A stretch of DNA of 64,000 nucleotides from Escherichia coli (GCF_030013205.1 NZ_CP122648.1); one strand, 5' to 3'; shown: positions 39,408-61,826, numbered from the stretch's first letter. Notes: generated from the sequence alone by a model not told the origin. A program made the numbers and translations.

Positions 39408-39419
39408 AGGGAGACAAAA

Positions 39420-39439
39420 AAAGCGCCCGCAGGCGCTTT
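39420..39439. repeat. attL: 20-bp direct repeat AAAGCGCCCGCAGGCGCTTT (prophage boundary)
   Basis: Identical copy at 60471-60490; palindromic stem; here followed on the minus strand by a T-run, i.e. the intact host terminator context. Confidence 0.8.
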
Positions 39440-39522
39440 AACGTTTCTTGCTCCCCCTGATGATTTACTTATTTTTCAACGAATAAGCCAAAACAGGGGG
39501 AACAAATTAACACAAATTATAA

Positions 39523-40515
39523 CTAATCGATGGACAGTTTATGGACACTTTCAGCCAGCGGATTAAAGTTGATCGCGTCCTGTAAGAAGTCCGGCGAAAA
39601 ATGAGCGTACGTCATTGTTTGCTGAATCGTTGCGTGCCCCAGGATTCGTTGCAACGTAACAATATTTCCGCCATTCATCATAAAGTGTGTGGCAAATGTA
39701 TGACGCATGACATGCGTAGCCTGCCCCTTCGGCAAATCCGGTTTCACCTCCTGAAGAATCTCCCGGAACTTCAGATAATCAACCTGATACAATAACCCCG
39801 TTCGACGGGTTTTAATCAGAGGCACGACCGAATCCGCCACAGGAACCGAACGGGATTTTCCGTTTTTGGTGTTAAAGAACGTCACCCGGTTGCCAACGAT
39901 ATGCTCTCCACGTAGTTCCGATGCTTCACTCCATCGGGCACCAGTAGAAAGACACAGAATGGCAACACGACGCGCATCACCCTCCAGTCGCTCAAGAAGC
40001 CGTTCAATCTCATCATCAGAAAGAAAGGCCATCTCTGTGTTCTGAACTTTCAGTTTTCGTATACCGCGTACAGGGTTCGCGTTGTGAAAGACCTCAGCTT
40101 CAATCAGCACCGTGAACATGGTAGACAGTACGCATAAGTCACGATTAATACTGGACGGCATTAATCCGGCCTGTAATTTCTCTGACCGATATTCAAGCAT
40201 AAATTTTCGCGTCATCTGACTGGCGCGAGGATCTCCCATTTCACGAACAACCTTCCCTAGCCTAACCCTGTAGCTATCCCCGTAAGCCTGATTACGCCCA
40301 TCAAGCATCCACCACGCATCAAGCAGCTCTGATAATCGCCGCTGATCAGCTGGCTTAGCCTGCCATGGCTTGTCATGAAAGTTCTGTAACACATACTTCT
40401 CAAACTCCTGAGCCTTTGATTTCAGGGCAAAGATTTTTCGAATCCGCTTTCCTTCCGCCCCCTGCGGTCTGACATCGACCTGATAACGTCCGTCTTTGAG
40501 TTGCTTAATCGACAT
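39523..40515 (-). CDS. int: Phage integrase (tyrosine recombinase, P2 Int-like)
   Basis: N-terminus MSIKQLKDGRYQVDVRPQG resembles P2 Int; C-terminal catalytic region with HxxR...Y; adjacent to attL. Confidence 0.88.
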   Translation of the reverse strand: MSIKQLKDGRYQVDVRPQGAEGKRIRKIFALKSKAQEFEKYVLQNFHDKPWQAKPADQRRLSELLDAWWMLDGRNQAYGDSYRVRLGKVVREMGDPRASQMTRKFMLEYRSEKLQAGLMPSSINRDLCVLSTMFTVLIEAEVFHNANPVRGIRKLKVQNTEMAFLSDDEIERLLERLEGDARRVAILCLSTGARWSEASELRGEHIVGNRVTFFNTKNGKSRSVPVADSVVPLIKTRRTGLLYQVDYLKFREILQEVKPDLPKGQATHVMRHTFATHFMMNGGNIVTLQRILGHATIQQTMTYAHFSPDFLQDAINFNPLAESVHKLSID

Positions 40516-40584
40516 GATTAGCCCCTCCAACGGATAAATTAACTAAACACTCCTTGCGATATGTAATTCGCTCAATGTGTAGAG

Positions 40585-40926
40585 TCAGCCAACATTGCGG
40601 CCTGATCGGGGTGATTTTTGGGTAATACCGATTGAAACCTGATCGCCCTCCGACTGAATAGATCCATCAAGAGAGAGAGCCGGAGCAATCTGCCCGGCGA
40701 CAGGTAGCGTCTTATCTTTTATTAGCCACAGCATGTATTTTTCAAAGCGATCGACTTGCAGAACCGCCTCAACGATTTTTGCTCTAGCGTTCTTTTGCCC
40801 CGATTCGTAATTCCTTATGGTTGCCAAAGACAACCCAGTAATATCCGCAAACTGCTTTTGTGTTAACCCTTCCGCCTTACGTATCTGACGTAACTTTTTT
40901 GCATAGTCTATTGACAAGATAACCAT
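40585..40926 (-). CDS. Prophage repressor (P2 C-like, HTH)
   Basis: HTH LTQKQFADITGLSLATIRNYESG and C-terminal GQIAPAL motif resembling P2 C; start uncertain (ORF extends to 40980). Confidence 0.75.
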   Translation of the reverse strand: MVILSIDYAKKLRQIRKAEGLTQKQFADITGLSLATIRNYESGQKNARAKIVEAVLQVDRFEKYMLWLIKDKTLPVAGQIAPALSLDGSIQSEGDQVSIGITQKSPRSGRNVG

Positions 40927-40971
40927 TTGAGTATTAACCTCTCGCACAAAGATAACCGTTTGATTATCTTT

Positions 40972-40989
40972 ACAAACCAAAACAAACCA
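40972..40989. promoter_or_regulatory. Candidate operator: two 8-bp direct repeats ACAAACCA spaced 10 bp centre to centre
   Basis: Lies between the divergent repressor and early operon; P2 C binds direct repeats. Confidence 0.35.
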
Positions 40990-41030
40990 TCACAAGGCGC
41001 GACAAGCGCACCAACGCAAGAGGATAACAA

Positions 41031-41552
41031 ATGCGGGACTTCATTGCCGATAAAGAGTTATCTGACCACCAACCACTTCAGGAAAGTGACGCACTCAGCG
41101 GATCCATTGATGCCGCCAACGACGACGAACACGAAGAAAACAAGAAAAAGCGTTCCTACAAAAAAGGAGCGACTTTACGGCTGGATGGTCCGATCGCCGG
41201 GCTTTGCTCTCTGGAAAAAGGCGCGGCATATATTGGGCTAACAAAATCTGCACTGCGCGTAGCCATTCATCGCGGTCAAATGCCGGGACACAAGACGCGC
41301 ACAAACCCGGAAGATGAAAACTCAGACGGAGTATGGTGGTTTAACGCCAAAGAGTGGGACGCACTGGCTGACGAGCTACCGGAACTTGAGCCACCAGAAT
41401 GGCACAACTGGAAAAGTTACTGGACGTATGACCGCCAGAAAAGAAAGTTCTTTCCAGCTAATAAAGAAGACTGCCAGACCATTAACGGTAAGCGAGTTTA
41501 TACAGGCAGAAGCTCAAAACTGAACCAACTCAGAAACAACAGAGGCAACTAA
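41031..41552 (+). CDS. Early protein with excisionase/AlpA-like HTH (possible Cox analogue), 173 aa
   Basis: First gene of the rightward early operon with a good RBS; segment YIGLTKSALRVAIHRGQMPG resembles Xis/AlpA HTH. Confidence 0.5.
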   Translation: MRDFIADKELSDHQPLQESDALSGSIDAANDDEHEENKKKRSYKKGATLRLDGPIAGLCSLEKGAAYIGLTKSALRVAIHRGQMPGHKTRTNPEDENSDGVWWFNAKEWDALADELPELEPPEWHNWKSYWTYDRQKRKFFPANKEDCQTINGKRVYTGRSSKLNQLRNNRGN

Positions 41553-41556
41553 TCGT

Positions 41557-41979
41557 ATGAAAACAAACACGTCAGATTTCACAATAACTATTTCAAAAAA
41601 TGACCAAGCATTAATTGATAACCTGAAATACCTTGCGGAAAAACATAATAACGGACGAATTGCAATTAATTTACGACACATCACAGGAGTAACAATTGTA
41701 ACCAGTTACTGGCATCTATATCTAATCGCTAAATCAGTACTGGAAAACAAAGATTCTGTTGTCAATGGAAGAGATGTAGATACTCTTCCTGCACAAATCA
41801 AACCGATAGCCTATCAATTGCGTAATCGTTTTAAAAATGAAGGTGGGATTATATTTGACTTTCCCGCAGCTGTAGCCGTGAGCTTCTCTCGGGAGGATAT
41901 ACTTCACTCATTTCGTTTTGCTCTATCAGGTGACGAGACATTATGGCAGCTAGAAGATGCCGGGAGCAGCCCGGCATAA
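41557..41979 (+). CDS. Hypothetical protein, 140 aa, AT-rich cargo
   Basis: ORF starts 5 bp after the preceding gene; markedly AT-rich; no recognisable domain. Confidence 0.5.
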   Translation: MKTNTSDFTITISKNDQALIDNLKYLAEKHNNGRIAINLRHITGVTIVTSYWHLYLIAKSVLENKDSVVNGRDVDTLPAQIKPIAYQLRNRFKNEGGIIFDFPAAVAVSFSREDILHSFRFALSGDETLWQLEDAGSSPA

Positions 41980-41985
41980 ATCAAA

Positions 41986-42177
41986 TTAAAAATCAACCAG
42001 TTGTGTGACAGGTGGGTATTTACGCTGAATTTTGTCAGTTACTAACGCCAGTAATATATGAATCTCTGCGTTTAATGCGTCTTTATCACCCGTCGTTTTT
42101 ACCCTAGGAGGGTTAATGTTATCCAGAGCAGCACTAAGGTCACTCAACAAATTAACAACTTTTTTATCTTCTGACAT
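41986..42177 (-). CDS. Hypothetical small protein, 63 aa, convergent to the 140-aa ORF
   Basis: AT-rich ORF on the opposite strand inside the early region. Confidence 0.35.
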   Translation of the reverse strand: MSEDKKVVNLLSDLSAALDNINPPRVKTTGDKDALNAEIHILLALVTDKIQRKYPPVTQLVDF

Positions 42178-42312
42178 GAAAACCTCTAAACAATTTAATT
42201 AAACATAAGCCAGGACCTGAACCGGCCAGTCCAAGTCCTAGACACACAAAAAATACCACAAATCAATACAAGGTGACACGAGTACACCTTACCGAAGGTA
42301 CAGAGTTTTAAT

Positions 42313-42663
42313 ATGAAACTACAGCGCAATTCTTCACAGCCGCGCTTCCGCAACGGTGCGGAACGCCACGCTAACCGTTTCGCTACCAGTGCATCACGTA
42401 GCAACTCTCGCTACAGCCTGAGCGAAACACACGCAACGCCGGATGGCTACCCAGTAAAACAAATCGGCGAGCATACCTGGCTGATTGAGAAAGCTGGAAT
42501 TGTGGTCCACAAATGCCCACGCAATCCGTTTACCGGAAACCGCATTTTTGCATTGAGCTGCGGCGACAATCAGTTCGGGCAGGATTTCACATTATACGAA
42601 GCACTTCGCACGGTTGATCGTCTGCTTCGCGGGCAAAGTTTTATTAAACAGGCTGATTTATAA
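42313..42663 (+). CDS. Hypothetical phage early protein, 116 aa
   Basis: ORF in the early operon; start uncertain. Confidence 0.4.
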   Translation: MKLQRNSSQPRFRNGAERHANRFATSASRSNSRYSLSETHATPDGYPVKQIGEHTWLIEKAGIVVHKCPRNPFTGNRIFALSCGDNQFGQDFTLYEALRTVDRLLRGQSFIKQADL

Positions 42664-42673
42664 CAGGTGCGTT

Positions 42674-42961
42674 ATGACCAAAGAGCATGCACAAGGTGTA
42701 TTTATCCGTTTTATTGATTTTCGCGGTGAAATGTTATTACGCGCATCCGCTATTGATGGAGTGGCTCCAGCGGGTAAAAACGGAGCCAACGAAGCCACTT
42801 ACGTTTATCTGAACAGCACGCGACTGCTTGTGGAACTTCCGTACCAGACCGTACGAGAAATCATTAGTGAAGCTGAAAAGGCACGCCAGGCTAATGGCGA
42901 TAAACCCTATATCGAAATTATTTGTATGGATTCAGAAACTGAAATTCAGAAAGCAGATTAA
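42674..42961 (+). CDS. Hypothetical phage early protein, ~95 aa
   Basis: Start taken at MTKEHAQG; tight spacing with neighbours. Confidence 0.45.
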   Translation: MTKEHAQGVFIRFIDFRGEMLLRASAIDGVAPAGKNGANEATYVYLNSTRLLVELPYQTVREIISEAEKARQANGDKPYIEIICMDSETEIQKAD

Positions 42962-42972
42962 AGGGCGTTGCG

Positions 42973-43215
42973 ATGGGCAAAGAATATAAAACTCTCATTA
43001 ACAAAGCACTTGAGCGTTTTTATTTTCGCTTAAGTGCATCAGGCGCTCATGCTGAACGTGCAGCCCGTGACTCATTGACCAGGGCAATCCGGAGTCTGTA
43101 TGACGTGGCTTTTTACGCTGATGATCTGGATGCACTTAACGAACTTTCCGAGCTGATCTGTGCCGCAGAATGCGGGGAACATATTGAACCGTATAAGCTG
43201 GGGAATATCGCATGA
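42973..43215 (+). CDS. Hypothetical phage early protein, 80 aa
   Basis: ORF ending in an ATGA overlap with the following small ORF. Confidence 0.45.
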   Translation: MGKEYKTLINKALERFYFRLSASGAHAERAARDSLTRAIRSLYDVAFYADDLDALNELSELICAAECGEHIEPYKLGNIA

Positions 43216-43325
43216 GTATATTTATCTCGTGGCTTGTTCTGATTATTTCGGTGATCTGCGCTATTGGCATTATGCGAATTATTCATTCAGTGAAAAAGAT
43301 TGAGCGTTTTTTCTCTGACGAATAA
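43212..43325 (+). CDS. Small hydrophobic peptide, 37 aa (MSIFISWLVLIISVICAIGIMRIIHSVKKIERFFSDE)
   Basis: ATG overlaps the upstream stop (ATGA); single TM helix; below the ORF-track length cutoff. Confidence 0.35.
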   Translation: MSIFISWLVLIISVICAIGIMRIIHSVKKIERFFSDE

Positions 43326-43418
43326 CAGCACAAATAAAACACCAGATTAAATAAGAAAACGTGAAAACCATCCGAATTAACGGAGGCATTCACACACGTA
43401 AATAATGGAGATACAAAA

Positions 43419-43829
43419 ATGAACGCAAAAGAAAAAGGCATTATAACTGCGCTAAAAAATATATCGGAGACCGCAAACAGAGCCATTCAGGATGCAACAA
43501 ATGCAGGAATGATTGGGCCTGCCACCACAGCCATGATGATAGCAAGAGTAACCGCCGAAGCAGCCGAAATTATCGAAAAACAGGATGCTGAACTAACGGT
43601 TCTCAGAACACAATCAGTCACCGAACTGGATTTGTCTAACACCGGACGCCTTATTTACACAATTGGCTCGGAGCCACAGCAATACACCATTATCGTCGGA
43701 TTACAGGATAAATACCTGATCACTCCTCACCCCATAAGGGAATCAGAAATTCTGACAAATCTCCGCCTGATAGAGCGCTCTCAAGTCGCATTCATTGATG
43801 ACGCACAGCGCACCGTATTTAACGCATAG
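43419..43829 (+). CDS. Hypothetical phage protein, 136 aa
   Basis: ORF in the early operon. Confidence 0.45.
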   Translation: MNAKEKGIITALKNISETANRAIQDATNAGMIGPATTAMMIARVTAEAAEIIEKQDAELTVLRTQSVTELDLSNTGRLIYTIGSEPQQYTIIVGLQDKYLITPHPIRESEILTNLRLIERSQVAFIDDAQRTVFNA

Positions 43830-43853
43830 GGTTACTGGACAAAGGGGGGCGCA

Positions 43854-44057
43854 ATGGCAATTAAGCGTTTTTCCGTCATTCGTTTCACATCCAGAGGGCG
43901 TGAATACGAGGTTGACGAACGGCTGATTAAAACGCTCGACCGTCACCGTTCGCAACCTGACGCGCATCACATTTACCTCACTGACGACACTTACTTCTGC
44001 GCCACCAACGTGGTGCAGGTGAATCTTATCAGACAGGTACAGGAGTCACGCAGATGA
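43854..44057 (+). CDS. Hypothetical phage protein, 67 aa
   Basis: 4-bp overlap with the next gene. Confidence 0.45.
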   Translation: MAIKRFSVIRFTSRGREYEVDERLIKTLDRHRSQPDAHHIYLTDDTYFCATNVVQVNLIRQVQESRR

Positions 44058-44299
44058 CCATTCTGGACTACATCACAGCCAATCCGGGTTGTAGCGGTGG
44101 AGAAATCGCCGCCGCGCTGAATACCCCAACCACAGCCATTAATGCTGAGTTGCGCCGACTCTGGCGTGACGGCTTAGTCATCAGAGAAGAGCGCAAAACA
44201 GGCGGTCGGTTCTCTTACCAGGTAAACCCGATGCCGTTCGGGTGTGGCAACCCACTTACTCACATGTTTAACCAGCTACTGAAGGAAGCCAGAGCATGA
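44054..44299 (+). CDS. Small winged-helix-like DNA-binding protein, 81 aa
   Basis: Segment GCSGGEIAAALNTPTTAINAELRRLWRDGLV resembles a wHTH recognition helix; ATGA-coupled on both sides. Confidence 0.45.
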   Translation: MTILDYITANPGCSGGEIAAALNTPTTAINAELRRLWRDGLVIREERKTGGRFSYQVNPMPFGCGNPLTHMFNQLLKEARA

Positions 44300-44595
44300 G
44301 CACCATCAACCACCAGGAACTACGCGAACTGGCGACTGACCTGCAACGAATGGCAACGCATCAAAAATTACTGGCGTTTCGCGCAATGCTCTCGCCATCT
44401 GCCGTGTTGGCACTACTGGATGAGCTGGAGCACGCCAGAACCACAGCGCCAGCCATTCGCCTGACGCTCCATCATGAAATCGCTGATTTCTGTGCACCAC
44501 TGGGTTCACCTGGCGAACCGGAAACACCGGAAGCAATGCAGCGAGAGCTGCTGCAACGCATCGACAAGGTTTTTGATTTTTTCCTTAACCAGTAA
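44296..44595 (+). CDS. Hypothetical phage protein, 99 aa
   Basis: Coupled ORF. Confidence 0.45.
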   Translation: MSTINHQELRELATDLQRMATHQKLLAFRAMLSPSAVLALLDELEHARTTAPAIRLTLHHEIADFCAPLGSPGEPETPEAMQRELLQRIDKVFDFFLNQ

Positions 44596-44606
44596 GGGAT
44601 CGCAGC

Positions 44607-44810
44607 ATGAACAAAAAGACCTGGTTTCGCGCATACATGTGGGCGCTGGTATGCGTCCTCGTTTCTCTCATTCTGTATGCAGGACTCCTCCCCCGAATGA
44701 TTTCATCAGACAGCTCCTTCCTGGTATTGCTGGGCATTTTCATTGCCATGCTGTACCCGGCAGGCGTTGTTCGCCTTTTCAGTAAGTACATCAAGGAAAT
44801 CAAACAATGA
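44607..44810 (+). CDS. Small two-helix membrane protein, 67 aa (possible NfeD-like partner)
   Basis: Two hydrophobic helices; stop overlaps the start of the SPFH gene (ATGA). Confidence 0.5.
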   Translation: MNKKTWFRAYMWALVCVLVSLILYAGLLPRMISSDSSFLVLLGIFIAMLYPAGVVRLFSKYIKEIKQ

Positions 44811-45637
44811 AGAAATTCAAACTCTTTCAGATTATCCCTCTTTTTGCCGCCATCCTGCTGGTTGGTTGCGATCGTGTTGAGCCAGGTAATGTGGGCATCA
44901 AAGTCAACAAACTGGGCGACGACAAAGGCGTCGGTGAAGTGGTTGGTGTTGGCCGCTACTGGACTGGCTGGAATACCGAGGTTTACATCTTCCCGACCTT
45001 CAAACAAATGAAGACCTACGATGAGCCGTTCAGCTTCCAGATGAGTGACGGCACAACCATCGGCTATCACATCGGTGTGGCCTACAAGGTTGATCCATCC
45101 AAAGTTACTACAGTGTTTCAGACCTACCGCAAAGGCGTGGATGACATTACCGACACTGACCTGCGCCAGAAGATCGCCGATGCACTCAACCGACTGGCCA
45201 GCAAAATGACCACCGACAAATTTATCGACGGCGGGAAATCTGAACTACTGGATGCAGCTCTTAAAGACATTCAGGAGGAAATGACACCCATCGGTATTCA
45301 GGTAATGAGCCTCTCATATGTGGGTAAGCCGGAGTACCCGTCAACCGTTATCGACAGCATTAATGCCAAAGTCACGGCAAACCAGAAAACCCTGCAACGC
45401 GAACAGGAAGTCAAGCAACGTGAAGCAGAAGCCAACATGTTGCGCGCAGAAGCTGCCGGACAGGCTGATGCCATTCGCACAAAAGCCCAGGCTGAAGCCG
45501 ACGCCATTCGTTTACGCGGTGAAGCTCTGCGCCAGAATCCCGGCGTTATGGAGCTGGAAGCAATCAACAAATGGAACGGCACGCTGCCGCAATACATGAC
45601 CAGCAATACCGCTGTTCCGTTTGTTCCGGTGAAGTAA
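44807..45637 (+). CDS. SPFH/band-7 (stomatin/prohibitin-like) lipoprotein, 276 aa
   Basis: Lipobox LLVGC; SPFH-like core followed by an Ala/Glu-rich coiled coil (REAEANMLRAEAAGQADAIRTKAQAEADAIRLRGEA). Confidence 0.65.
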   Translation: MKKFKLFQIIPLFAAILLVGCDRVEPGNVGIKVNKLGDDKGVGEVVGVGRYWTGWNTEVYIFPTFKQMKTYDEPFSFQMSDGTTIGYHIGVAYKVDPSKVTTVFQTYRKGVDDITDTDLRQKIADALNRLASKMTTDKFIDGGKSELLDAALKDIQEEMTPIGIQVMSLSYVGKPEYPSTVIDSINAKVTANQKTLQREQEVKQREAEANMLRAEAAGQADAIRTKAQAEADAIRLRGEALRQNPGVMELEAINKWNGTLPQYMTSNTAVPFVPVK

Positions 45638-46004
45638 TTAAACCCGGCCAGTGAAAATCACTGGCCGGAGCAGTATCAGGATTTTTTAGTATGCCGTTCT
45701 CACAAAAAAACCGCTTGCCATGCCGCAATCAGTCAGGTTACATTTCCGCTGCACCTCATAAAACGGGTGCCGGGATTTCCACCCCGCTGACAACCAAAGC
45801 GCACAACCGCGCCAGCGGTTTTTTTGTGCGTACCGTATCGCCACGTCTTTTTCGCACACGAATTATGGTGGGGCGTATGGGGCCGACTTCGGTCGGGCCG
45901 GGTTCTTTGGTTGCCGGTTGTGGAAACCCTGTACGTCTCACCACCCCGAGTTTTCCACCTCTGGATGGTGAGTTTTCAAAACTTACAACCAAAGAGGCCA
46001 CACC

Positions 46005-46235
46005 ATGGCAAACCGCAAACAACAGCGCACATACGCTGCGCGTCGTCACATCCAGACTGAAATCAACCGCAGACTTTTCCGCGCATTCCGCGTCGCGCAA
46101 ATCATGCACATCAATATGCTGCATGAACGCAGTCACGCACTATCGAACAGCTATTCCGCCTCTGTTTTCAGCTATCTGGCGGATGATCTGCGCGAGCTTC
46201 AGCAGCTCATCCAGCAGCAAAACAAACTCCATTAA
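46005..46235 (+). CDS. Hypothetical small basic protein, 76 aa
   Basis: ORF downstream of a structured non-coding stretch. Confidence 0.35.
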   Translation: MANRKQQRTYAARRHIQTEINRRLFRAFRVAQIMHINMLHERSHALSNSYSASVFSYLADDLRELQQLIQQQNKLH

Positions 46236-46307
46236 TTCCTGTTCCGGGCCTTTCCTGCACCTTGCGGCGGGAGGCCTTCGCACATCTGTAACAAGAGGAG
46301 TGCCGCA

Positions 46308-46673
46308 ATGATTCTCGCCAACGACTTTCTTGAATACCTGCTCAACACAGAGCGTGATCTTGCCGTTCGCGTGCGTGACCGTTATGACATGTACCTGAAA
46401 TCCCTGCCTGTACCGCAGCTCGCTGACGGAAAGATTGTTATTGATGGCCGCTACATGATTGACAGCCACGAGGGAAATTACAGGCTTTACCGCATTGAAG
46501 GCGGCACCCCGTCCGTTATTGGCATTTACCAGCGCCCATCCTCTGCGATCGTCGATGTGATTGCAGACAGCATCCGCATCACACATCACTATGCCGACAC
46601 AGAAGACACCGTGCTGGAAATTCAGCGGCTGGCTACAGTCTGCCGCGACACCCTGAATGGCATGACGAAGTAA
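46308..46673 (+). CDS. Hypothetical phage protein, 121 aa
   Basis: Tightly packed with downstream ORFs. Confidence 0.45.
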   Translation: MILANDFLEYLLNTERDLAVRVRDRYDMYLKSLPVPQLADGKIVIDGRYMIDSHEGNYRLYRIEGGTPSVIGIYQRPSSAIVDVIADSIRITHHYADTEDTVLEIQRLATVCRDTLNGMTK

Positions 46674-46679
46674 ATCACT

Positions 46680-46967
46680 ATGACAGCAGAGTACATCAGG
46701 GACTGGCAACAACCGCGCCACGCAGTGGGGCGTGAAGGAACGGGGATCCCTGCTCCTGAAGCGGTGGAAGGTGTCGCAACGTCACAGGCCGACATTATCG
46801 ACCGTTTTAATGCGCTGGAAACCCGCCATCAGCAGGACAGCCAGAAAATCACTTTACTGACCACAGAGCTGACAGCACTGAAGGAAAAACTGCGCACGCA
46901 GGACGGCGATCCGCAGAACCGGTTCACCGCAACGGGCGCAGCCTCCGATCAACTGGCTGACTTCTGA
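46680..46967 (+). CDS. Hypothetical phage protein, 95 aa
   Basis: Tightly packed ORF. Confidence 0.45.
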   Translation: MTAEYIRDWQQPRHAVGREGTGIPAPEAVEGVATSQADIIDRFNALETRHQQDSQKITLLTTELTALKEKLRTQDGDPQNRFTATGAASDQLADF

Positions 46968-46990
46968 TAAGACAAAGGAGCAAATTTTTT

Positions 46991-47774: not shown

Positions 47775-47784
47775 GTGAGAAACA

Positions 47785-51586: not shown

Positions 51587-51756
51587 AAGATAATCATGTG
51601 ACCAATTATTGTAATAATTTTAATGGTATGTTTCTACTGGCTATCCAGCGTGTCTGATGTCCAGTAACAAATCGTTAACACTGGTGCAATCAAATGGTGA
51701 GTGTTAAGACTGGCCACTTATTACCAGGTATGAGGGTATGAGTGGCCAGCATTAAA

Positions 51757-52251: not shown

Positions 52252-52257
52252 GACTCC

Positions 52258-55074
52258 TCAATCTTTATCGTAAAAACTGCCACGCCCGGCACGGGCGCGC
52301 CGTTCCATTTCTGCCCTGACCATTTCACCGACCAGTTTCGCCAGTTCGCGGGGATTCTGCGTAACAACGTTATGCAGATGAACATGAATTTCACCACCAA
52401 ATCCGGAGGCAACAGGCTCCCGGTTACGGGAAGTTACAGGAACTGATGCCACTGGAGATCGTATGGCCTCCGCCACCGGGCGGGAGCTGGCCGCAACAAC
52501 AGGGACCAGCGCCGGAGGCAGCGGAGCCGGGACCACGGGTGTGATATTAATTGCGGGGGCAGGCTTACTGACCTGCGCAATCTTCCGCTCCTGCCACTCT
52601 CCACGAACAGCAAGTGCGCGGGGCAGGTTCTTAAAGACAATATCGCCGGGGCCAATGCGTTTTTTCGTCTCATCAACCAGCTTACCTGTGTTATCAGCAA
52701 TTTTGCTGAGTCTGCGTAGCGTCCCGGTATTGCTGTCTGTGAGCGGTTTGTTGTCTTTGGGTTTATTACCTCCGGTGCCATTGCCATTTTCCACAGGCTT
52801 CGGCGGATTGATTTTCGCCAGGTCACCCTGAAGCAAGGCAACCTTGTCCTGAAGAATGGCCGCACGCTGTGCGTCTTCGATTTTCTTGCGCGCCCTTTCC
52901 GCTTCATCCGGAAGGACGCCAAGTTTTTCAAGTATCCACGCCAGCGTATCCAGTAGCATTTTTGCAGGTGTCAGAACAAGCTGTAACGCACCGCCAAGAA
53001 CGTTACCGAATATCTCGCCAGCACTGGTACATTTATCCAGCGTTTCCTTGCTGGACTCCATCGGTGACAGCAGCGATTTAAACCAGTTAAACACCTGGCT
53101 GATCCCGCTTCCGATTGTGTCAAAAACAGGACCAAACCGTTCAAAGGTTTCGCGCAACGGGGTCAGCCTTTCCATAATCCCGCTGAACACCCCGGCAAAA
53201 AATGCCCTGATGGGATCCCAGTATTTCCAGATAAGAACGGCAGCTCCGGCAAGCGCAGCCACGATAAGACCAACCGGACTGAACAACGCCCCGATGGCGC
53301 CTCCCAGTAAAGAAACGGAACCCGTCACCATTCCCCACAGCGCAGGCAACACCCTGACGACATTCATTGACCGGGTAAGAATGTCAAAACCAAGACGCAG
53401 GGTGGCCAGCTTCCCGTAAAGCACCCCAATAACCAGCGACAACGAGCCAATCGTTGCAGTCATTGCCAGCAACGCACCGCCTGCTATCAGTAGCTGGCGC
53501 GTCAGTACCGGATGGGCCTGCGCCAGCGAGGTGATTTTTTCAAGCACCCGCGTGAGCCACTGCGTGACAGAACGCAGCGGACCGTCAACCAGATCACTGA
53601 TGCGAATACGAAGACCTTCCCATGCGCTGTCGAGATTTTTCAGGTCCCCATCAAGATTATCGGCCATTACTTTTGCGACGCGATCGGCCTCTCCCCTTGC
53701 CCCCTGCAATTCTCTGGTCAGTTTTTGCAGCTCTCCTGAACCAGCCGCCGCAACAAGCGTCTGCAAACCAACGAACGCCTCTTCTCCGGCGATGTCCTTG
53801 AAGAAGGAAACCTGGTCCACCTGTCCGTATTTTTGTGTCGCCTTATAGAGATCAAGCAGCACATCCTCCATCGGGCGCATTTTGCCTCTGGCGTCAGCAA
53901 CTGACACCCCCAGCTCTTTCAGTGCATCAGCCGCAGCTTTTGGCGGTGATGCAAGGCGGGACAGACTTGCGCGCATGGCCGTACCAGCATCGCTTCCGCG
54001 AAGACCATTATTGGCAAGCATCCCGGCCATGGCCGCCGCTTCTTCAAGACTGATACCAAGTTTTGCGGCAACCGGACCGGTATACTTCATGGTTTCGCCC
54101 AGCGCGCGTAAATCAGTATTGGTCCGGGTGAATGCTGCTGTCAGCGTATCGCCAACACGGTCCATTTGATCGGCTGTCAGGTTGAACTGTGTGAGGATAT
54201 TGGAGCCTATATCAGCCGTCTCGCCGAGTTCGACGCCACCTGCCAGCGCCATATTAAGAACACCGGGCAATGCGGCCTGAATGGCCTGCGGAGTAAAACC
54301 AGCCATTGCCAGAAAGCTCTGCCCACTGGCGGCATCACTCGCAGTAAACTGTGTTTCAGAGCCAAGTTTTAACGCCTGCTCACGCAGCGCCTTAAACTGC
54401 GGGCTGTTTTTGTCGATTCGCGTCAGTGCCTGAACGCGGGACATCTCTTTGCCGAACCCGATCGCAGGCTGCAAAAAACGCCCGGCAGCATAGCCGCCCG
54501 CCGTTGCCGCACCAATTGCCAGCGCACCACCTGTTTTCAGTTTTCCCGCTGTTTCCTGCGCGCGCGAATACCGCTCACGCGCCCGTGTTACACGCGCAAG
54601 CGCCTGCCGTTCGCGTTCAAGCTGGTTGTTGTACTGTTCGGTGCGTCTGATGGCCTGCTGGATGGTGTTATCGCTGCCTGTCAGGGAAATGCCGTGGCGT
54701 TTCAGCTCTCCGCCAAGCTCCCGCATTTTCTGAATTTCCCGTGTGCGCGATTCATTCAGGCGTTCAAGCCGGGTGCTTAACTGCTGCATCAGCTTTTGTT
54801 GTTTTTCGCTGAGCACTGTACCCGTGCGTTGTAACTGATTAAGGGCGTTAAGCTGGCGTCGTGCTTTCAATATGCCAGCATCCGCTTTACTGACAGCGTC
54901 ACGGGCGCGCTCAAATGAACGCGCCTGACGCTCGAGATTTTTGATCGCCCCCTGCGTTCGCTGGATGGAGTCACCAAACTGCCCCATCAGGCGGCGGGCG
55001 TTTTCGGCAGGCCGGGTCAGCCTGTCAACGGCGCTGAAAGCGACCCGGATGTCAAGAGTCTTCATTGTCTGCAT
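52258..55074 (-). CDS. Tail tape measure protein (P2 gpT-like)
   Basis: Long coiled-coil/TM-rich protein between E' and U; start uncertain (ORF extends to 55101). Confidence 0.85.
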   Translation of the reverse strand: MQTMKTLDIRVAFSAVDRLTRPAENARRLMGQFGDSIQRTQGAIKNLERQARSFERARDAVSKADAGILKARRQLNALNQLQRTGTVLSEKQQKLMQQLSTRLERLNESRTREIQKMRELGGELKRHGISLTGSDNTIQQAIRRTEQYNNQLERERQALARVTRARERYSRAQETAGKLKTGGALAIGAATAGGYAAGRFLQPAIGFGKEMSRVQALTRIDKNSPQFKALREQALKLGSETQFTASDAASGQSFLAMAGFTPQAIQAALPGVLNMALAGGVELGETADIGSNILTQFNLTADQMDRVGDTLTAAFTRTNTDLRALGETMKYTGPVAAKLGISLEEAAAMAGMLANNGLRGSDAGTAMRASLSRLASPPKAAADALKELGVSVADARGKMRPMEDVLLDLYKATQKYGQVDQVSFFKDIAGEEAFVGLQTLVAAAGSGELQKLTRELQGARGEADRVAKVMADNLDGDLKNLDSAWEGLRIRISDLVDGPLRSVTQWLTRVLEKITSLAQAHPVLTRQLLIAGGALLAMTATIGSLSLVIGVLYGKLATLRLGFDILTRSMNVVRVLPALWGMVTGSVSLLGGAIGALFSPVGLIVAALAGAAVLIWKYWDPIRAFFAGVFSGIMERLTPLRETFERFGPVFDTIGSGISQVFNWFKSLLSPMESSKETLDKCTSAGEIFGNVLGGALQLVLTPAKMLLDTLAWILEKLGVLPDEAERARKKIEDAQRAAILQDKVALLQGDLAKINPPKPVENGNGTGGNKPKDNKPLTDSNTGTLRRLSKIADNTGKLVDETKKRIGPGDIVFKNLPRALAVRGEWQERKIAQVSKPAPAINITPVVPAPLPPALVPVVAASSRPVAEAIRSPVASVPVTSRNREPVASGFGGEIHVHLHNVVTQNPRELAKLVGEMVRAEMERRARAGRGSFYDKD

Positions 55075-55288
55075 TCCCGCTGCGAAGTGCCGCCCGCTCA
55101 CGCCAGCTAACCACTTCGCCGGGCGTCATCATGAAGATTTCGGCGGGCGACCAGTTAAAAATGGCGGCGATATCTGCCACCAGATCTTCGATGTGCTCAA
55201 AGCACACCAGGGTGATTACGCTGCCGTCTCCTGCACGCTCTTCGCGCCAGAGTCTGGCTCGCTCATAAAATTTACAGCCACAGCGCAC
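55052..55288 (-). CDS. E' frameshift extension of tail assembly chaperone (P2 E+E'-like)
   Basis: Overlapping -1 frame ORF continuing past the E stop; joined via a slippery heptamer. Confidence 0.6.
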   Translation of the reverse strand: MRCGCKFYERARLWREERAGDGSVITLVCFEHIEDLVADIAAIFNWSPAEIFMMTPGEVVSWRERAALRSGNADNEDS

Positions 55289-55590
55289 AACTGAATAAAA
55301 TCGCGTGACGACATTTTTTTAATCATCACTTCATCCAGTCGTGGCGAGGTCACGCGAGGCAACAGCGTGAACATGGTATCCGCTTTCAGATTCAGCACAT
55401 CAGACAGCGACAGACCACGCAGGGATCCAGCCTGTTCAATAGCCCCGGTGATCTCCACATACGTGATTTTTTCGCCACCACGCTCAATTGGTCGGGTCAG
55501 TTTTACGCCACGTTCGACAGCCATATCCTCACCTGCCGTCACATCATCCGCCACGGTGTTATTCCGGGTTTCAGTATCGATGTCTTTCAT
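55216..55590 (-). CDS. Tail assembly chaperone E (P2 gpE-like)
   Basis: Small acidic ORF between the tail tube and tape measure genes; start uncertain. Confidence 0.75.
   Translation of the reverse strand: MKDIDTETRNNTVADDVTAGEDMAVERGVKLTRPIERGGEKITYVEITGAIEQAGSLRGLSLSDVLNLKADTMFTLLPRVTSPRLDEVMIKKMSSRDFIQLCAVAVNFMSEPDSGAKSVQETAA
55267..55273 (-). promoter_or_regulatory. Candidate -1 programmed frameshift slippery site A_AAT_TTT (E to E')
   Basis: Heptamer of the form X_XXY_YYZ in the E frame, located where the E' frame opens. Confidence 0.45.
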
Positions 55591-55645
55591 CAGTTGTCTC
55601 CTTTTCAGTCAGAGGCGACGCACTGCGCCGCCTGCATATTACTTA

Positions 55646-56158
55646 TCAGCCAAGCCCGAGCGCGGAACGGATGCGATCGGGCACAATGTCCTTGCCGTCC
55701 TTCCGGTAAATGAAGTTCAGCAGGTCAATCTCCCACAACGGGCGATCGTTAACACTCAGCTTGTAGTAGGTGTTTTTAATGGCGTAAGTGTGTGATGTGG
55801 CTTCGCCCTGTTTGGCTTCCCCCATATCAATTTCCGTCACACGTCCGCGCATTTCGACTTCATACAGGTCGCTTTCTGCATCGGTGTAGTATTCACCCGC
55901 AAAACGCAGCAGCGTGCCGTCAATCGTGCCGCCATACTTAAGGAACAGCTCACGAACTGCGCCCCCCATGACAAAGCTCGCATCAAGCGCGGAGTCGTCC
56001 AGACCGAGATCAATACTTACCGCACCCATCATGCCACCACCCCGGTAGCTGTCGGTTTTGCGCGTCAGCTTAGGCAGAGTGACGGACGTCACCTTACCCA
56101 CTTCGTTTTCACCATCCACAAACAGCGTAAAAAAGCGAAGATGTTTTGGTACAGCCAT
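55646..56158 (-). CDS. Tail tube protein (P2 gpFII-like), 170 aa
   Basis: ...VTLPKLTRK...YRGGGM...DLGLDD... matches recalled P2 FII; TGATG-coupled to the sheath gene. Confidence 0.9.
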   Translation of the reverse strand: MAVPKHLRFFTLFVDGENEVGKVTSVTLPKLTRKTDSYRGGGMMGAVSIDLGLDDSALDASFVMGGAVRELFLKYGGTIDGTLLRFAGEYYTDAESDLYEVEMRGRVTEIDMGEAKQGEATSHTYAIKNTYYKLSVNDRPLWEIDLLNFIYRKDGKDIVPDRIRSALGLG

Positions 56159-57345
56159 CAGGCACCTCCCAGCACCGCAAATGCGGGACCAAAGAATTCA
56201 TCAGTAAACGACTGATAAAGCTCCATGTCTTCCAACGGGGGAACAGGCGTATATTTGTAGCGAATACGCACGCGCCCCTGACGTAAATCCGTGGTGCTGT
56301 TATCCACCACGTCATACCAGCACTCCGCGCCAATCAGTTTCCCGGCAGTCACCAGTGAATCCAGTTTTGCCCTGATGGCACTGATAACATCCTTCACGTT
56401 CGCAGGCGTCAGTGGACTGTCGATGGTTTCAAACTGCGCTTCCGCAATTGAATCAGCCAGCACCTGTGCGGTTCGGGTATACACCTCAAAGATGTAGGCG
56501 TTCGTTTCCGGTGTGCGGTTGCCCCAGAAGCGGAACCCGTTGCGACGAATAATGGTCGTGATTTCTTTGTTGTTGAGGCTGTTGGCATCGCTGTCTTCGG
56601 CCTGCAACGACCAGAACACATGCCTCGACATCCCCAGCACATTTTTAACAGGAACGTTGGACAGTGATTTGTGCCAGCCCTGCTCATGGTCAATGTACGC
56701 ACGAAGGCCGCACGCATAGGCAGGCGCGGGGAACGTTTCGTTTTTGCCACTTTTCGGGTTGTAGGCGATGAAGTCCGGCCATAAGAGCATCACCTCACGT
56801 TCGTTGAATTTCTGGCGGTAGGTAATCGCATCAGCCATCGTGTCACAGCCATGACATGAGGCATACACAAACGCGCGCAGTTTACCCGCAATCACGCACA
56901 GGGATTTTGTCACCGCCTCCGTGTCCAGCTCCGGCGCGGCCAGAATACGCGGACGGTATCCGATGCTTTCATCCTGCTCTGCAACAAGCAGCGCATACAT
57001 CCCCGTATAGCTGCCGTCAGATTCAGAACCACCGATAACCAGTTGATCCTGCGTCTTTCCGTCTTCTTCTTTGTGTTCAGCCACGCGAACGACGATCACC
57101 TTTGTGCTCACCTGGTCTGCGATAGCCTTAAGCGCACGATAAAGCGTCCCCGTTGTCCCGCATTTTCCCAGCACGTCATTGACGCGGGTCAGCAGTGTGG
57201 GCTTGTTCAGCGGGAACAGCTTCGCGTCCGCATCATCCGCCGTTGCCACGATACCGATAACACTGGAATCAACATCATTAATCGCTGTTACCAGGTCGGT
57301 ATTTTCCGTAACACGGGCACCATGAAAACGAGTTTCACTCATAGC
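56158..57345 (-). CDS. Contractile tail sheath protein (P2 gpFI-like), 395 aa
   Basis: Start taken at MSETRFHGARV; size and sequence typical of a myovirus sheath. Confidence 0.9.
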   Translation of the reverse strand, partial: AMSETRFHGARVTENTDLVTAINDVDSSVIGIVATADDADAKLFPLNKPTLLTRVNDVLGKCGTTGTLYRALKAIADQVSTKVIVVRVAEHKEEDGKTQDQLVIGGSESDGSYTGMYALLVAEQDESIGYRPRILAAPELDTEAVTKSLCVIAGKLRAFVYASCHGCDTMADAITYRQKFNEREVMLLWPDFIAYNPKSGKNETFPAPAYACGLRAYIDHEQGWHKSLSNVPVKNVLGMSRHVFWSLQAEDSDANSLNNKEITTIIRRNGFRFWGNRTPETNAYIFEVYTRTAQVLADSIAEAQFETIDSPLTPANVKDVISAIRAKLDSLVTAGKLIGAECWYDVVDNSTTDLRQGRVRIRYKYTPVPPLEDMELYQSFTDEFFGPAFAVLGGA

Positions 57346-57499
57346 TTCAGCCCCTTGTATCCGTAAAATGATTCGGCAACAATCATCACCCACCACGCGC
57401 GTAATCTCACCCCTGCGCCGTTCTCCCGACCCGGCGACAACAAAAAGCAGTAACCCCCTCCGCACGCACATGCGACCATGCCGCACAGGGAGGGAACAG

Positions 57500-58609
57500 A
57501 TGACCGATACCACCATGCAATTGCTCAGTCAGGGCACAGACCCCGTGAAAATGCCGGATTTTGATATTCTCGCGGAGGGTAAAACGCTGTCAGGCGTGGC
57601 AGAGCGCCTGATGAGCCTGTCACTGACCGACAACCGGGGATTTGAGGCGGACCAGCTCACCATCACGCTGGATGATGCGGATGGTCAGTTGCAGCTACCG
57701 CCACGGGGCGCGCGCCTGACGGTTCTCATTGGCTGGAAAGGAGAACCGCTGACAGAAAAAGGCACTTACATTGTTGATGAAATCGCTCACGAAGGACCGC
57801 CGGACAGGCTGACTGTTTCAGCCAGAAGCGCAGATTTTCGGGATGAATTTAACGTTAAACGTGAGGTGTCCTGGCATGATGTGACCGTTGAGCGTGTGGT
57901 ATCCGCCATCGCTCATCGGTACGGCCTGAAACCGCAAATCAGCGAAATGCTGATGGATATCGAAATCGACCACGCCGACCAGACCGAAGAAAGCGACATG
58001 TCCTTTCTTACGCGCATGGCGGAAATGCTGGGCGCAATCACCACGGTAAAAAGCGGTAATCTGTTATTCATTATGCCAGGCGGTGGCGTGAACGCACAGG
58101 GCCAGCCGTTGCCCTCGTTCGCCATTACACGCAGCAGCGGCGATCGCCATCAGTTCCGTATTGCTGACCGCGAGGCGTATACGGGGGTACGCGCCTACTG
58201 GCTTGATCTTAATTACGGGAAAAAGAAAAAAGTCAGCGTGAAACGCCGTAAACCGCCAAAACCCAAAAAGGAGAAAAGCAGCAGCCGTGAAGGTGATTAT
58301 ATGGAAGGCGCGGAAGGCAATGTGTTTGTGTTACGCAAGACTTATCAGAACGAGCAGGCAGCAAGACGCGCAGCGGCGGCAAAGTGGCAGCAGCTACAAC
58401 GCGGAGCCGCATCATTCTCCATCACGCTGGCGCGTGGACGTGCAGAACTCTACCCTGAAATGCATGGCACGGTGACAGGCTTTAAAAGTGACATCGACAA
58501 TCAGGACTGGATTATTGCAAAAGCCGAGCACACCATTGATAACAGCGGCTTTACCACGCAGCTTGAGCTTGAAGCAAAAATCCCAGAATGGATAGCAGAA
58601 ACAGAGTAA
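57500..58609 (+). CDS. Tail protein D (P2 gpD-like), 369 aa
   Basis: Start at MTDTTMQLL with RBS AGGGAGGG; gpD-like sequence; ORF track extends upstream to 57368. Confidence 0.85.
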   Translation: MTDTTMQLLSQGTDPVKMPDFDILAEGKTLSGVAERLMSLSLTDNRGFEADQLTITLDDADGQLQLPPRGARLTVLIGWKGEPLTEKGTYIVDEIAHEGPPDRLTVSARSADFRDEFNVKREVSWHDVTVERVVSAIAHRYGLKPQISEMLMDIEIDHADQTEESDMSFLTRMAEMLGAITTVKSGNLLFIMPGGGVNAQGQPLPSFAITRSSGDRHQFRIADREAYTGVRAYWLDLNYGKKKKVSVKRRKPPKPKKEKSSSREGDYMEGAEGNVFVLRKTYQNEQAARRAAAAKWQQLQRGAASFSITLARGRAELYPEMHGTVTGFKSDIDNQDWIIAKAEHTIDNSGFTTQLELEAKIPEWIAETE

Positions 58610-58785
58610 ACAACTTAGATGCATTAGCCCTGACATTTGCTAACGCGCCTACAGCAAGAATCATAATCAATCTGACAGCCTACCCGGTGTCAAAATCAGA
58701 AGTACCTTACATTAGAATATGTTAATTTGTAGCAAACAAATTTACACACAAATAATTACTGCTGAAATAGCGCCCCATAAATGCC

Positions 58786-59469
58786 ATGTCAGAGGACCAT
58801 GTTATGAATATGCAAATTTTTATTGGACCAACAGCCACAGTTGCCGCGGTCTGCCTTGCTGCATATTTTGCTTTACGAAATGAGCGTAAAAAGAAAGCGC
58901 TTGAGATTAGAACAACTCAACTAGATCGAATATCTGAGCTAGTAAGCAGAGCATCTACCAATTTGATGCAATATACAGGTACTCTTGCCTCTATACTGGA
59001 AGCGCACACCAAAGAAAATTATCTACCAGACCACAAATTTAACATTAATGAAATTAGCAAATGGAAAAATGATCTCGATAAGAGAGAAGATTGGGCTATT
59101 GATATACAGCAACTAAGAACATGCCAGCACAACCTGGAGTTTCATCGTGAAAAAGAATGGGCTGAATGGGAAAAAATAATTCCACCATTACTTGATAAAA
59201 TTAACCAATTTTTTCTCATATCCAAGCCGGGGCAACCTGTTACGCTTATAAATGGTCAAAATAAAACAGTCGATGAACTGATTGCTTTCTCAATATACTT
59301 ACAACAACAAACAGAAGAAATTAAAGCGGTACGTAAGCTGCTACTTTCTCAAATGAGAGAAGAATTCATCGAGTTAACTAGCTTTGAACCTGTCACAATA
59401 TTTAGCTTATTAAAATCAATAAAGAAAAGTGTCCTGCAATTTTTCTGTATCAGTGCTCTTAAAAATTGA
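58786..59469 (+). CDS. Membrane-anchored hypothetical protein, 227 aa, AT-rich cargo between D and ogr
   Basis: N-terminal TM helix (IFIGPTATVAAVCLAAYFAL) then ~190-aa charged helical domain; low GC; followed by a hairpin terminator at ~59483-59512. Confidence 0.6.
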   Translation: MSEDHVMNMQIFIGPTATVAAVCLAAYFALRNERKKKALEIRTTQLDRISELVSRASTNLMQYTGTLASILEAHTKENYLPDHKFNINEISKWKNDLDKREDWAIDIQQLRTCQHNLEFHREKEWAEWEKIIPPLLDKINQFFLISKPGQPVTLINGQNKTVDELIAFSIYLQQQTEEIKAVRKLLLSQMREEFIELTSFEPVTIFSLLKSIKKSVLQFFCISALKN

Positions 59470-59618
59470 CGCTCTGTTACAAGCAACCCCAGTGTTAAAC
59501 TGGGGTTATTCTTGCTAAGAGACCTTTATACGGCATAAGTAAACAAAGAGAACTATCAGTTGGAGTCTGGGCAAGTTCAGCCTAAACTAGCGACAGTACC
59601 ACGTTAAGGGAGGTCGCT

Positions 59619-59879
59619 ATGTTCCGTTGTCCGCTTTGTGGCGCATCTGCCCGTATCCGCACCAGTCGTCCGGAAAATGATTCAAACACCGTGCGGCAAA
59701 AGTATTACCAGTGCAACAACCTGGAATGCGGCGTATGCTTCTCAACACTGGAAGCTTTCCATAAATTCACATCGAAACACGCCTCCGGCATCCACTCTTC
59801 AGAAGGTATCCCGTGGCATGAGCTGCCAGCTTCACACAGGGGAAACAATCAGATGAGCTTGCCTTTACCTCAGAATTAA
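59619..59879 (+). CDS. ogr: Ogr/Delta-like zinc-finger late gene activator, 86 aa
   Basis: MFRCPLCGASARIRTSR...QKYYQCNNLECG: CxxC...CxxC arrangement as in P2 Ogr. Confidence 0.8.
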   Translation: MFRCPLCGASARIRTSRPENDSNTVRQKYYQCNNLECGVCFSTLEAFHKFTSKHASGIHSSEGIPWHELPASHRGNNQMSLPLPQN

Positions 59880-59939
59880 CAGGCAGAATTGCCGGAGTAA
59901 CAAAAAAGCGATAGATTACGCGCGGGTGCCTTTCGGCTG

Positions 59940-60152
59940 ATGGTCGGAGGGAATACCCGAAGGCCGGATGTGGAAAGGCCCCGGAAAACATTTTTGTTTA
60001 ACCGAGGCCCTGACCATACAACCTTCGCAAGTCGTAGGTTAGCGCCTCTCCAACAAAGGAGCAAGCGCTATGTCGCAAAAATCGCTTATGGCCATCACGT
60101 TCTGCGTGACGGTAATCCTCATCATCTGGATGCTGCACGGTTCGCTGTGTGA
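59940..60152 (+). CDS. Mok-like reading frame overlapping the hok-like toxin gene
   Basis: 70-codon ORF in another frame, starting upstream of and ending within the toxin ORF, as in hok/mok loci. Confidence 0.4.
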   Translation: MVGGNTRRPDVERPRKTFLFNRGPDHTTFASRRLAPLQQRSKRYVAKIAYGHHVLRDGNPHHLDAARFAV

Positions 60153-60210
60153 AATACGGATGAGCTTCTGGGGAGCGGAGTTTGCGGCGTTCTTACAGTG
60201 TAAGCAGTAA
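60070..60210 (+). CDS. Hok/Gef-family type I toxin, 46 aa (MSQKSLMAITFCVTVILIIWMLHGSLCEIRMSFWGAEFAAFLQCKQ)
   Basis: N-terminal TM helix then SLCEIR and AAF motifs characteristic of Hok-family toxins; RBS AAGGAG 8 nt upstream; below the ORF-track length cutoff. Confidence 0.75.
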   Translation: MSQKSLMAITFCVTVILIIWMLHGSLCEIRMSFWGAEFAAFLQCKQ

Positions 60211-60302
60211 GGAAACCGCGACGGGGGAGCAATCCCCCGTCAATCGGTTGCCAGGGTAAAGGTCGAAAAGGCACCCTATTTCCAGTTGACGTGAACAACA
60301 AG

Positions 60303-60336
60303 CCCGCAGCGTAAAAACTGCGGGTTTTCTTTTTGG
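60303..60336 (+). terminator. Rho-independent terminator, likely 3' end of the hok-like mRNA
   Basis: CCCGCAG-loop-CTGCGGG followed by TTTTCTTTTT. Confidence 0.6.
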
Positions 60337-60367
60337 TTCCCTCACTCATGAGGAAACCAAAAACAAA

Positions 60368-60396
60368 GCCCACAGCATAGAAGCTGTGGGCTTTTT
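60368..60396. terminator. Bidirectional hairpin terminator between the hok-like locus and serS
   Basis: GCCCACAGC-ATAGAA-GCTGTGGGC with T-runs on both strands. Confidence 0.55.
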
Positions 60397-60470
60397 GCAT
60401 TCAAAGATGGACGTTATATGGACACTTAAAAATAAAATCCATTTATTTTCAAATGATTAAACCTCTACTT

Positions 60471-60490
60471 AAAGCGCCCGCAGGCGCTTT
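60471..60490. repeat. attR: 20-bp direct repeat AAAGCGCCCGCAGGCGCTTT
   Basis: Identical to 39420-39439; 23 bp downstream of the serS stop. Confidence 0.8.

Positions 60491-60512: not shown

Positions 60513-61826
<1,314 letters not shown>

Follow-up and report, generated by a model that had tools for sequence, protein, structure and literature searches.

We analyzed a 64,000-nt stretch of the Escherichia coli chromosome (hereafter, the window, in which positions are counted from the first letter), and found that the ~21-kb block lying between dmsA and serS at 39420–60490 is very probably a P88-like prophage of the P2 family that integrated at the terminator core of serS and the putative small RNA (sRNA) gene STnc130, subsequently lost 14,887 bp through two deletions, and is now cryptic. 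The window sequence matches the chromosome of the Belgian pig isolate E. coli ETEC4079 (NZ_CP122643.1) with 100% identity. Below, we document the terminal repeat, the empty site, the identity of the phage, the deletions with their junctions, the distribution of the insertion among genomes, and the match of the phage attachment site (attP) to the P2 architecture. The coordinates of all features are listed in Table 1.

A direct repeat marks a site-specific insertion

A first-pass annotation of the window had proposed that the block is bounded by a perfect 20-bp direct repeat, that a phage integrase lies about 85 bp inside the left copy, and that the two copies bracket int, a C-like repressor, tail genes and ogr. 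All of these proposals were confirmed. The 20-mer AAAGCGCCCGCAGGCGCTTT was found exactly at 39420–39439 and 60471–60490 on the plus strand, with no further copies in the window, and 0 copies were expected on the basis of 100 shuffles of the window. Matches on the minus strand fell on the same two sites, the sequence being almost perfectly palindromic (8-bp stem, 4-nt loop). The left copy (attL) precedes the start codon of dmsA by 196 bp, and the right copy (attR) lies 22 nt past the serS stop codon. The open reading frame (ORF) of the integrase ends at 39523, that is, 83 nt inside attL, and the gene annotation places a helix-turn-helix (HTH) repressor, cox, tail genes and ogr between the two copies as well.

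We compared this arrangement with the corresponding region of K-12 MG1655, in which, according to the first-pass annotation, serS and dmsA are adjacent. They are indeed adjacent, separated by a 238-bp spacer that contains one copy of the core and no element. An empty site assembled from the outer flanks of the element around one core differed from K-12 by 1 mismatch in 308 nt; that is, the alignment gave the single repeat copy and the absence of the 21 kb that the annotation had expected.

To assess occupancy, a 442-nt synthetic empty site was compared with 5,425 complete E. coli genomes. The site was uninterrupted in 5,077 genomes and interrupted in the other 348 (~6.4%), in agreement with the view that the element is a site-specific integrant. 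A second query, consisting of the region upstream of dmsA, the core and the integrase (window 39250–40530), recovered the dmsA–core–integrase junction in 350 genomes; in all genomes without the junction, the match stopped at query position 190, corresponding to window position 39439, the last base of the core. Because 350 junctions were found against 348 interrupted sites, occupied sites essentially always contain an integrase of this type, and the boundary of the insertion is the edge of the core. The 21-kb form itself was found in 1 of 5,426 genomes, namely the source strain; no K-12-like genome carried it.

The copy number of the core was determined with a 34-nt, core-centered query, which matched 5,800 places in 5,424 genomes (median, 1 per genome; maximum, 4). 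The places in excess of one per genome match the number of lysogens, which is roughly 350. A median of one copy per genome indicates that the core is not a common, dispersed intergenic repeat, and such an origin was accordingly ruled out. We also considered whether the repeat could be a generic terminator or a palindrome resembling repetitive extragenic palindromic (REP) elements that flanks the phage genes by coincidence. The core is a GC-rich hairpin with T-runs, as are many intrinsic terminators. However, a second copy is essentially confined to lysogens, none is expected by chance in the window, homology to the empty site stops at the core edge, and the rebuilt site reproduces that of K-12; a coincidence of this kind is virtually inconceivable.

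The element is related to phage P88

The block had been described as P2-like, and comparison with phage records bore this out. The block matched phage P88 (NC_026014; Peduoviridae, Xuanwuvirus) and other Xuanwuvirus records, with 93–94% nucleotide identity over ~60% of the length of the element (for P88 itself, 93.8% over 60%). The retained genes occur in the same order as in P88 and in the prophage of a sister strain, ETEC1701. The annotated order is attL, int, a C-like HTH repressor, a divergent cox, early genes, the deletions described below, I, H, G, an acetyltransferase gene (minus strand), U-T-E'-E-FII-FI (minus strand), D, an orphan ORF, ogr, hok and attR. A P2-type layout is thus present at the left end, with a divergent C/cox switch and int downstream of C, and Int is 52% identical to P2 Int. 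On these sequence comparisons, the element is assigned to the P2-like phages (Peduoviridae; P88-like, Xuanwuvirus) as the remnant of a member rather than as a functional phage.

Three features of the late region deserved closer attention. The orientation of the FI–U operon might suggest a strain-specific inversion; P88 shows the same orientation, and therefore the arrangement is a trait of the genus. RefSeq calls only the last 266 aa of gpD, from which a truncation might be concluded, but the 369-aa ORF starting at 57500 is 99% identical to P88 gp51 and the gene is full length. At this locus RefSeq combines the 266-aa call with a spurious antisense pseudogene, and the same miscall occurs in ETEC1701 and in the pig strain P15-25. 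Finally, the zinc-finger protein near attR scored 44 bits with the NCBIfam Ogr model. Because this is below the equivalog cut-off of 116, we regard the protein as a member of the ogr family and not as an Ogr equivalog.

Table 1. Positions of the host, phage and attachment-site features in the window
Feature	Position	Strand	Remarks
dmsA (host flank)	36779–39223	–
Putative sRNA gene STnc130 (host)	39314–39448	+	Rfam RF02084, full length; last 9 nt phage-derived in the lysogen
attL core, 20 bp, 8-bp-stem hairpin	39420–39439		Minus strand retains the full T-run (TTTTTTTG); adjoins the 3' side of int
Tyrosine integrase, P2 Int type	39523–40515	–	PGAP, 'phage integrase'
Putative P' arm Int sites, tandem GATGGACAG / TATGGACAC, 11 bp apart	39530–39549 (39530, 39541)	+	Inside the 3' end of int; +91 to +109 from the core (P2, +87 to +113)
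Immunity repressor, C-like HTH	40585–40926	–	phrog_147; GpC in a near-identical record; upstream of int, same strand
Cox-family DNA-binding protein, putative excisionase/switch	41031–41552	+	phrog_23196, full length; divergent from C
Early-operon genes, mostly without known function	41557–46673	+
SPFH-domain protein	44807–45637	+	Early operon
isrK match	45751–45825	+	64 bits, above the gathering score
C4 antisense RNA match	45861–45948	+	80 bits, above the gathering score
Homolog of the P88 'derepression protein'	46005–46235	+	Early operon
Start of gene A (replication endonuclease)	46680–46760	+	First ~81–84 nt, cut by deletion 1
Deletion 1 junction	46758–46760		GAA microhomology; from the ETEC1701 comparison
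Retained island, ~356 bp (46758–47113 with GAA)	46761–47113	+	3' end of O and first 123 nt of capsid gene N
Deletion 2 junction	47112–47113		Microhomology: TG exact, CGGTG/CGTTG imperfect
Tail gene I	47247–47774	+
Tail fiber H	47785–50442	+
Fiber assembly G	50442–51059	+
Hexapeptide-repeat acetyltransferase, low GC, cargo	51023–51586	–	Between G and U, the slot of Z/fun in P2; phrog_2154
Tail operon U, T (tape measure), E'/E, FII (tube), FI (sheath)	51757–57342	–	Opposite strand to H, G and D, as in P88
gpD tail protein, full length, 369 aa	57500–58609	+	99% identity to full-length P88 gp51; phrog_52
Orphan cargo ORF, 227 aa, predicted N-terminal membrane helix, GC ~38%	58786–59469	+	Between D and ogr
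ogr/Delta-type zinc-finger late-gene activator	59619–59879	+	PGAP name; CxxC...CxxxxC motif
hok/sok-type toxin module	59924–60210	+	sok-region match 59924–60080; Hok/Gef peptide 60070–60210, 46 aa (PGAP)
Phage-borne bidirectional terminator-like hairpin	60365–60394		~80 nt inside attR
Putative P arm Int sites, tandem GATGGACGT / TATGGACAC, 11 bp apart	60407–60426 (60407, 60418)	+	64 to 46 nt before the core (P2, –63 to –36)
Putative integration host factor (IHF) site, A/T-rich	60429–60460	+	Between P arm and core; aligns with the annotated P2 IHF site
attR core, 20 bp	60471–60490		T-run cut to TTT on the serS strand
serS (host flank)	60513–61805	–

Two deletions reduced the prophage

The annotation had called the element a remnant, and comparison with ETEC1701, also a Belgian pig isolate, substantiates this. 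In ETEC1701, the element occupies the identical position, between the same two genes; there it is ~35.9 kb long, 14,887 bp longer than in the window. The two copies align in three collinear ungapped blocks with 99.7–100% identity, and the breaks between these blocks define the deletions. Deletion 1 (8,279 bp) removed the rest of A, parM, parR, the portal gene Q, the large terminase subunit gene P and most of the scaffold gene O. Deletion 2 (6,608 bp) removed N after nt 123, M (small terminase subunit), L (head completion), X, the holin, endolysin and spanin genes, R and S (tail completion), the baseplate genes V and W, and all of the baseplate gene J except for the last 141 nt. As a result, the P2 set of virion, lysis and replication genes is incomplete, with A, Q, P, O, N, M, L, X, holin, endolysin, spanins, R, S, V, W and J absent or truncated.

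An alternative is that the element is an inducible P2-like prophage whose genome is complete but unusually small. The intact state of int, C, cox, ogr and many tail genes, together with two perfect att sites, is in keeping with such a prophage. However, the missing functions include the portal, the terminase, an intact capsid and scaffold, holin, endolysin, V/W/J and A, stubs of A, O, N and J are left at the junctions, and the ETEC1701 element is longer by 14.9 kb. We therefore consider a small complete prophage extremely improbable.

We also examined the differences between the ETEC4079 and ETEC1701 prophages, and found that 39 of 42 mismatches are clustered at 57262–59768, a segment that covers the start of FI, D, the orphan ORF and ogr. 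Judging from this clustering, the segment is probably a recombination patch. Beyond it, only three positions differ in ~22 kb, one of which is in the host flank; accordingly, the deletions must be very recent. Among the 25 best-matching genomes, all but two span 35–40 kb at the site, the exceptions being ETEC4079 and the pig strain O139:H1 P15-25. The latter carries a separate deletion (14706–15930 of its locus) that extends from nt ~378 of the scaffold gene into J, with A, parMR, portal and terminase kept. The head-to-baseplate region has consequently been lost more than once.

Repeated loss of a similar block could point to selection, and the retained sheath, tube, tape measure, fiber, D and ogr genes might then represent a P2 gene subset kept as a phage satellite or as a domesticated tailocin. 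Several observations oppose this interpretation. In the absence of V, W, J and all lysis genes, no contractile particle would be assembled or released. Hallmark genes of satellites (P4-like) are lacking, and the element is collinear with the full phage except for the two deletions. In addition, the very recent date of the deletions, given by the three differences outside the patch, and the occurrence of the 21-kb form in a single genome leave little room for such maintenance, and we judge this interpretation very improbable.

The integration module resembles that of P2

Int contains the Pfam domains Int_N (1.8e-27) and Phage_integrase (5.5e-16), and its 52% identity to P2 Int extends over the full length (334 aa), with the RH..TH, LGH and YAHF segments aligned. 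The next-best true phage integrases are ~56% identical to the Int of the window. We rebuilt attP from the two ends of the prophage and compared it with the experimentally based annotation of the P2 reference record, which marks Int sites in the P arm, an IHF site, the core, sites for Cox, and further Int sites in the P' arm, where they overlap the 3' end of int. In the rebuilt attP, both arms contain tandem ATGGAC repeats at P2-like distances, and TATGGACAC occurs only at the two arm sites in the 64 kb. These similarities strongly support a P2-type mechanism of integration, in so far as sequence can indicate one, and Int, IHF and Cox would be expected to bind to the proposed sites.

Proposed history of the element and points against it

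We propose that a tyrosine integrase recombined a P88-like phage into the 20-bp terminator stem-loop upstream of dmsA, which duplicated the core as attL and attR while leaving both host genes intact. In the ETEC4079 lineage, the ~35.9-kb prophage was then shortened through two illegitimate-recombination deletions at 2–3-bp microhomologies. Having lost A, the genes for head, lysis and baseplate and, as judged from synteny, cos, the remnant would be capable of no replication, packaging, lysis or tail assembly. C, int, cox and both att sites, with their arm-type and IHF-like sites, appear to be intact, and homoimmunity and possibly excision may remain. Also kept are half of the tail genes, ogr, the hok module and a few cargo genes. 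Immunity and hok are presumably still functional.

Several results weigh against this history, and concern both the deletions and the integration step. The deletions are known from the single assembly of ETEC4079 and could in principle be assembly errors. Neither the P2 cohesive-end sequence nor a BLAST search with the P2 cos region gave a match in the ETEC1701 prophage or in the window; synteny would place cos in deletion 1. With respect to integration, an exact-pattern search for a contiguous attP (P arm, core and P' arm) found none in 50,697 phage records or in IMG/VR. Because no free phage genome shows attP, we infer the crossover inside the core from the comparison of lysogens with non-lysogens. 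We had also considered taking attP from 'phage' records with the same integrase, and this was rejected, since ON470599 and related records proved to be predicted prophages with host dmsA still attached.

The attP pattern searches recovered only attL-type junctions, including one in an attL-containing viral contig. ON470599.1 ('Escherichia phage vB_EcoM-569R5') contains host dmsA and the attL junction, not attP, and ON470623 and PV468777 gave identical attL-type matches starting at the core.

If both internal deletions were assembly artifacts, the prophage would in reality be full length. The ETEC4079 chromosome has seven places that match the query, and other P2-like sequences can mislead assemblers. 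On the other hand, the junctions are clean and collinear, the stubs of A, O, N and J are in order, and the short microhomologies are typical of illegitimate recombination. Moreover, the record is a finished circular chromosome, and P15-25 has a comparable deletion that looks real. An artifact is very improbable on this evidence, and integration at the terminator core followed by two deletions is the explanation that we retain.

The target is a bidirectional terminator

We then characterized the attachment site. The Rfam model of STnc130 gave 136.4 bits in the window and 140.1 bits at the empty site of K-12, compared with a gathering score of 55; the score derives mostly from sequence conservation of the orthologous intergenic region. 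The att core corresponds to the terminal hairpin of STnc130 (model positions 107–126), and, read on the opposite strand, this hairpin and the seven T's after it form the terminator of serS. Since the hairpin ends STnc130 and serS on opposite strands, the bacterial attachment site (attB) is a bidirectional terminator. The first-pass annotation had recognized neither this nature of the core nor the particular deletions behind the remnant. The dyad symmetry of the core may provide the inverted core-type sites on which tyrosine integrases act.

Integration alters both sides of this hairpin. At attL, the complete hairpin with its T-run is now downstream of int. At attR, the hairpin is kept with only three T's and fails a terminator scan; that is, the U-tract on the serS strand has three U instead of seven. 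The tract on the STnc130 strand has three instead of five, after which phage sequence follows. The phage-borne hairpin at 60365–60394 could stop read-through from serS.

These changes raise the possibility that the phage rewires termination or Hfq binding of STnc130, or causes serS read-through with the hairpin at 60365–60394 as a replacement terminator. If so, the 3' ends of serS and STnc130 transcripts would be altered in the ~6% of E. coli that carry the insertion. We consider such rewiring unlikely, and any regulatory consequence for STnc130 is speculative. In the literature, STnc130 appears only as a 'putative sRNA' of Salmonella, beside dmsA. No noncoding RNA is annotated at its position in K-12 RefSeq, and a simple scan upstream of it detected no sigma-70-like promoter.

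Cargo genes and RNA elements

The acetyltransferase gene between G and U is named 'serine acetyltransferase' in RefSeq. Its best NCBIfam matches, EpsC, CysE and WcaB, are all far below the curated cut-offs, so that this name is doubtful. The gene accompanies the tail-fiber module in other phage records.

The 227-aa ORF between D and ogr had no match in PHROG, PADLOC, Pfam or NCBIfam, and belonged to only 7 clusters (E. coli and Kluyvera) in 5.8 billion proteins. Two convergent orphan ORFs lie directly after cox, one at 41557–41979 (plus strand, 140 aa) and the other at 41986–42177 (minus strand, 63 aa). Neither had a PHROGs or PADLOC family, and the 140-aa ORF also had no significant Pfam match. 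The possibility that the cargo ORFs are known anti-phage defense genes was rejected, as PADLOC gave no meaningful match.

With respect to RNA elements, the sok model matched the hok region with 41.4 bits (E = 7e-8), which is under the gathering score of 59. The isrK and C4 matches are arranged in tandem within a RefSeq 'ash family' pseudogene, just upstream of the 'derepression protein' homolog. Together with this homolog, isrK/C4 may constitute an antirepressor module under RNA control in a P2-like phage.

Other features of the window

Outside the element, an IS200C transposase gene is located between ycaL and aroA (20884–21342, minus strand), where the spacer in K-12 is just 168 bp. At 31312–31520, the window lacks ycaN and ycaK, which separate ycaM from pflA in K-12, and only a 111-bp pseudogene fragment is left.

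Comparison with known systems

Phage family, site and mechanism each belong to a known kind, and the finding is real but ordinary. Its value lies in three points. First, a very recent prophage decay is documented, with both junctions mapped against a near-identical full-length copy. Second, the attB of one P2-family integrase type is defined as a 20-bp, single-copy terminator hairpin that is occupied in ~6% of complete E. coli genomes. Third, the P2 attP architecture is found to be conserved at 52% Int identity. These results should be useful for prophage callers, for the correction of database records and possibly for the design of integration vectors, and will not surprise specialists.

A literature search combining serS, dmsA and prophage found nothing, and a looser search yielded a paper published in 2025 on ST131, which reported a 38.6-kb P88 prophage, GI-3, downstream of serS; in that paper, serS was mislabelled as a serine recombinase. 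GI-3, from ST131 strain NS30, is P88-like and lies downstream of serS, as does the element described here.

P88 is an inducible P2-like phage from porcine enterotoxigenic E. coli (ETEC) K88, and ETEC4079 is likewise a porcine ETEC. A published survey listed P88 as a possible phage-plasmid, with integrated and episomal states, owing to its ParM/ParR genes. The ETEC1701 copy has plasmid-type ParM/ParR genes as in P88 (12080–13355 of its locus), and these are deleted in the window. P88 and the element share their gene order, including ParMR in the ETEC1701 copy, the FI–U operon on the strand opposite to H, G and D, and hok beside attR. They differ in three respects. P88 has its own int–C–cox module, and matches to P88 begin only ~2.9 kb into the element. 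The fiber tip and the slot after G are also different; P88 has an invertible fiber segment and a DNA invertase, whereas the acetyltransferase is found here. Finally, the copy in the window is without the 14.9 kb.

In comparison with P2, the layout is the same (attL-int-C / cox-early ... late-D-ogr-attR), as is the plan of attP, with tandem TGGAC-containing arm repeats 11 bp apart, an IHF site, and P' sites in the 3' end of int. However, the core of P2 is 27 bp, compared with the 20-bp serS/STnc130 hairpin, and attB is different. In addition, the FI–U operon is inverted here, Cox has 173 aa, about double the length of its P2 counterpart, old, tin and fun are absent, and the early region is largely unrelated. 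Cryptic prophages of E. coli likewise carry internal deletions and keep an integrase, a repressor and some cargo. In contrast to these, the decay described here is very recent and can be dated against a near-identical full-length sister copy.

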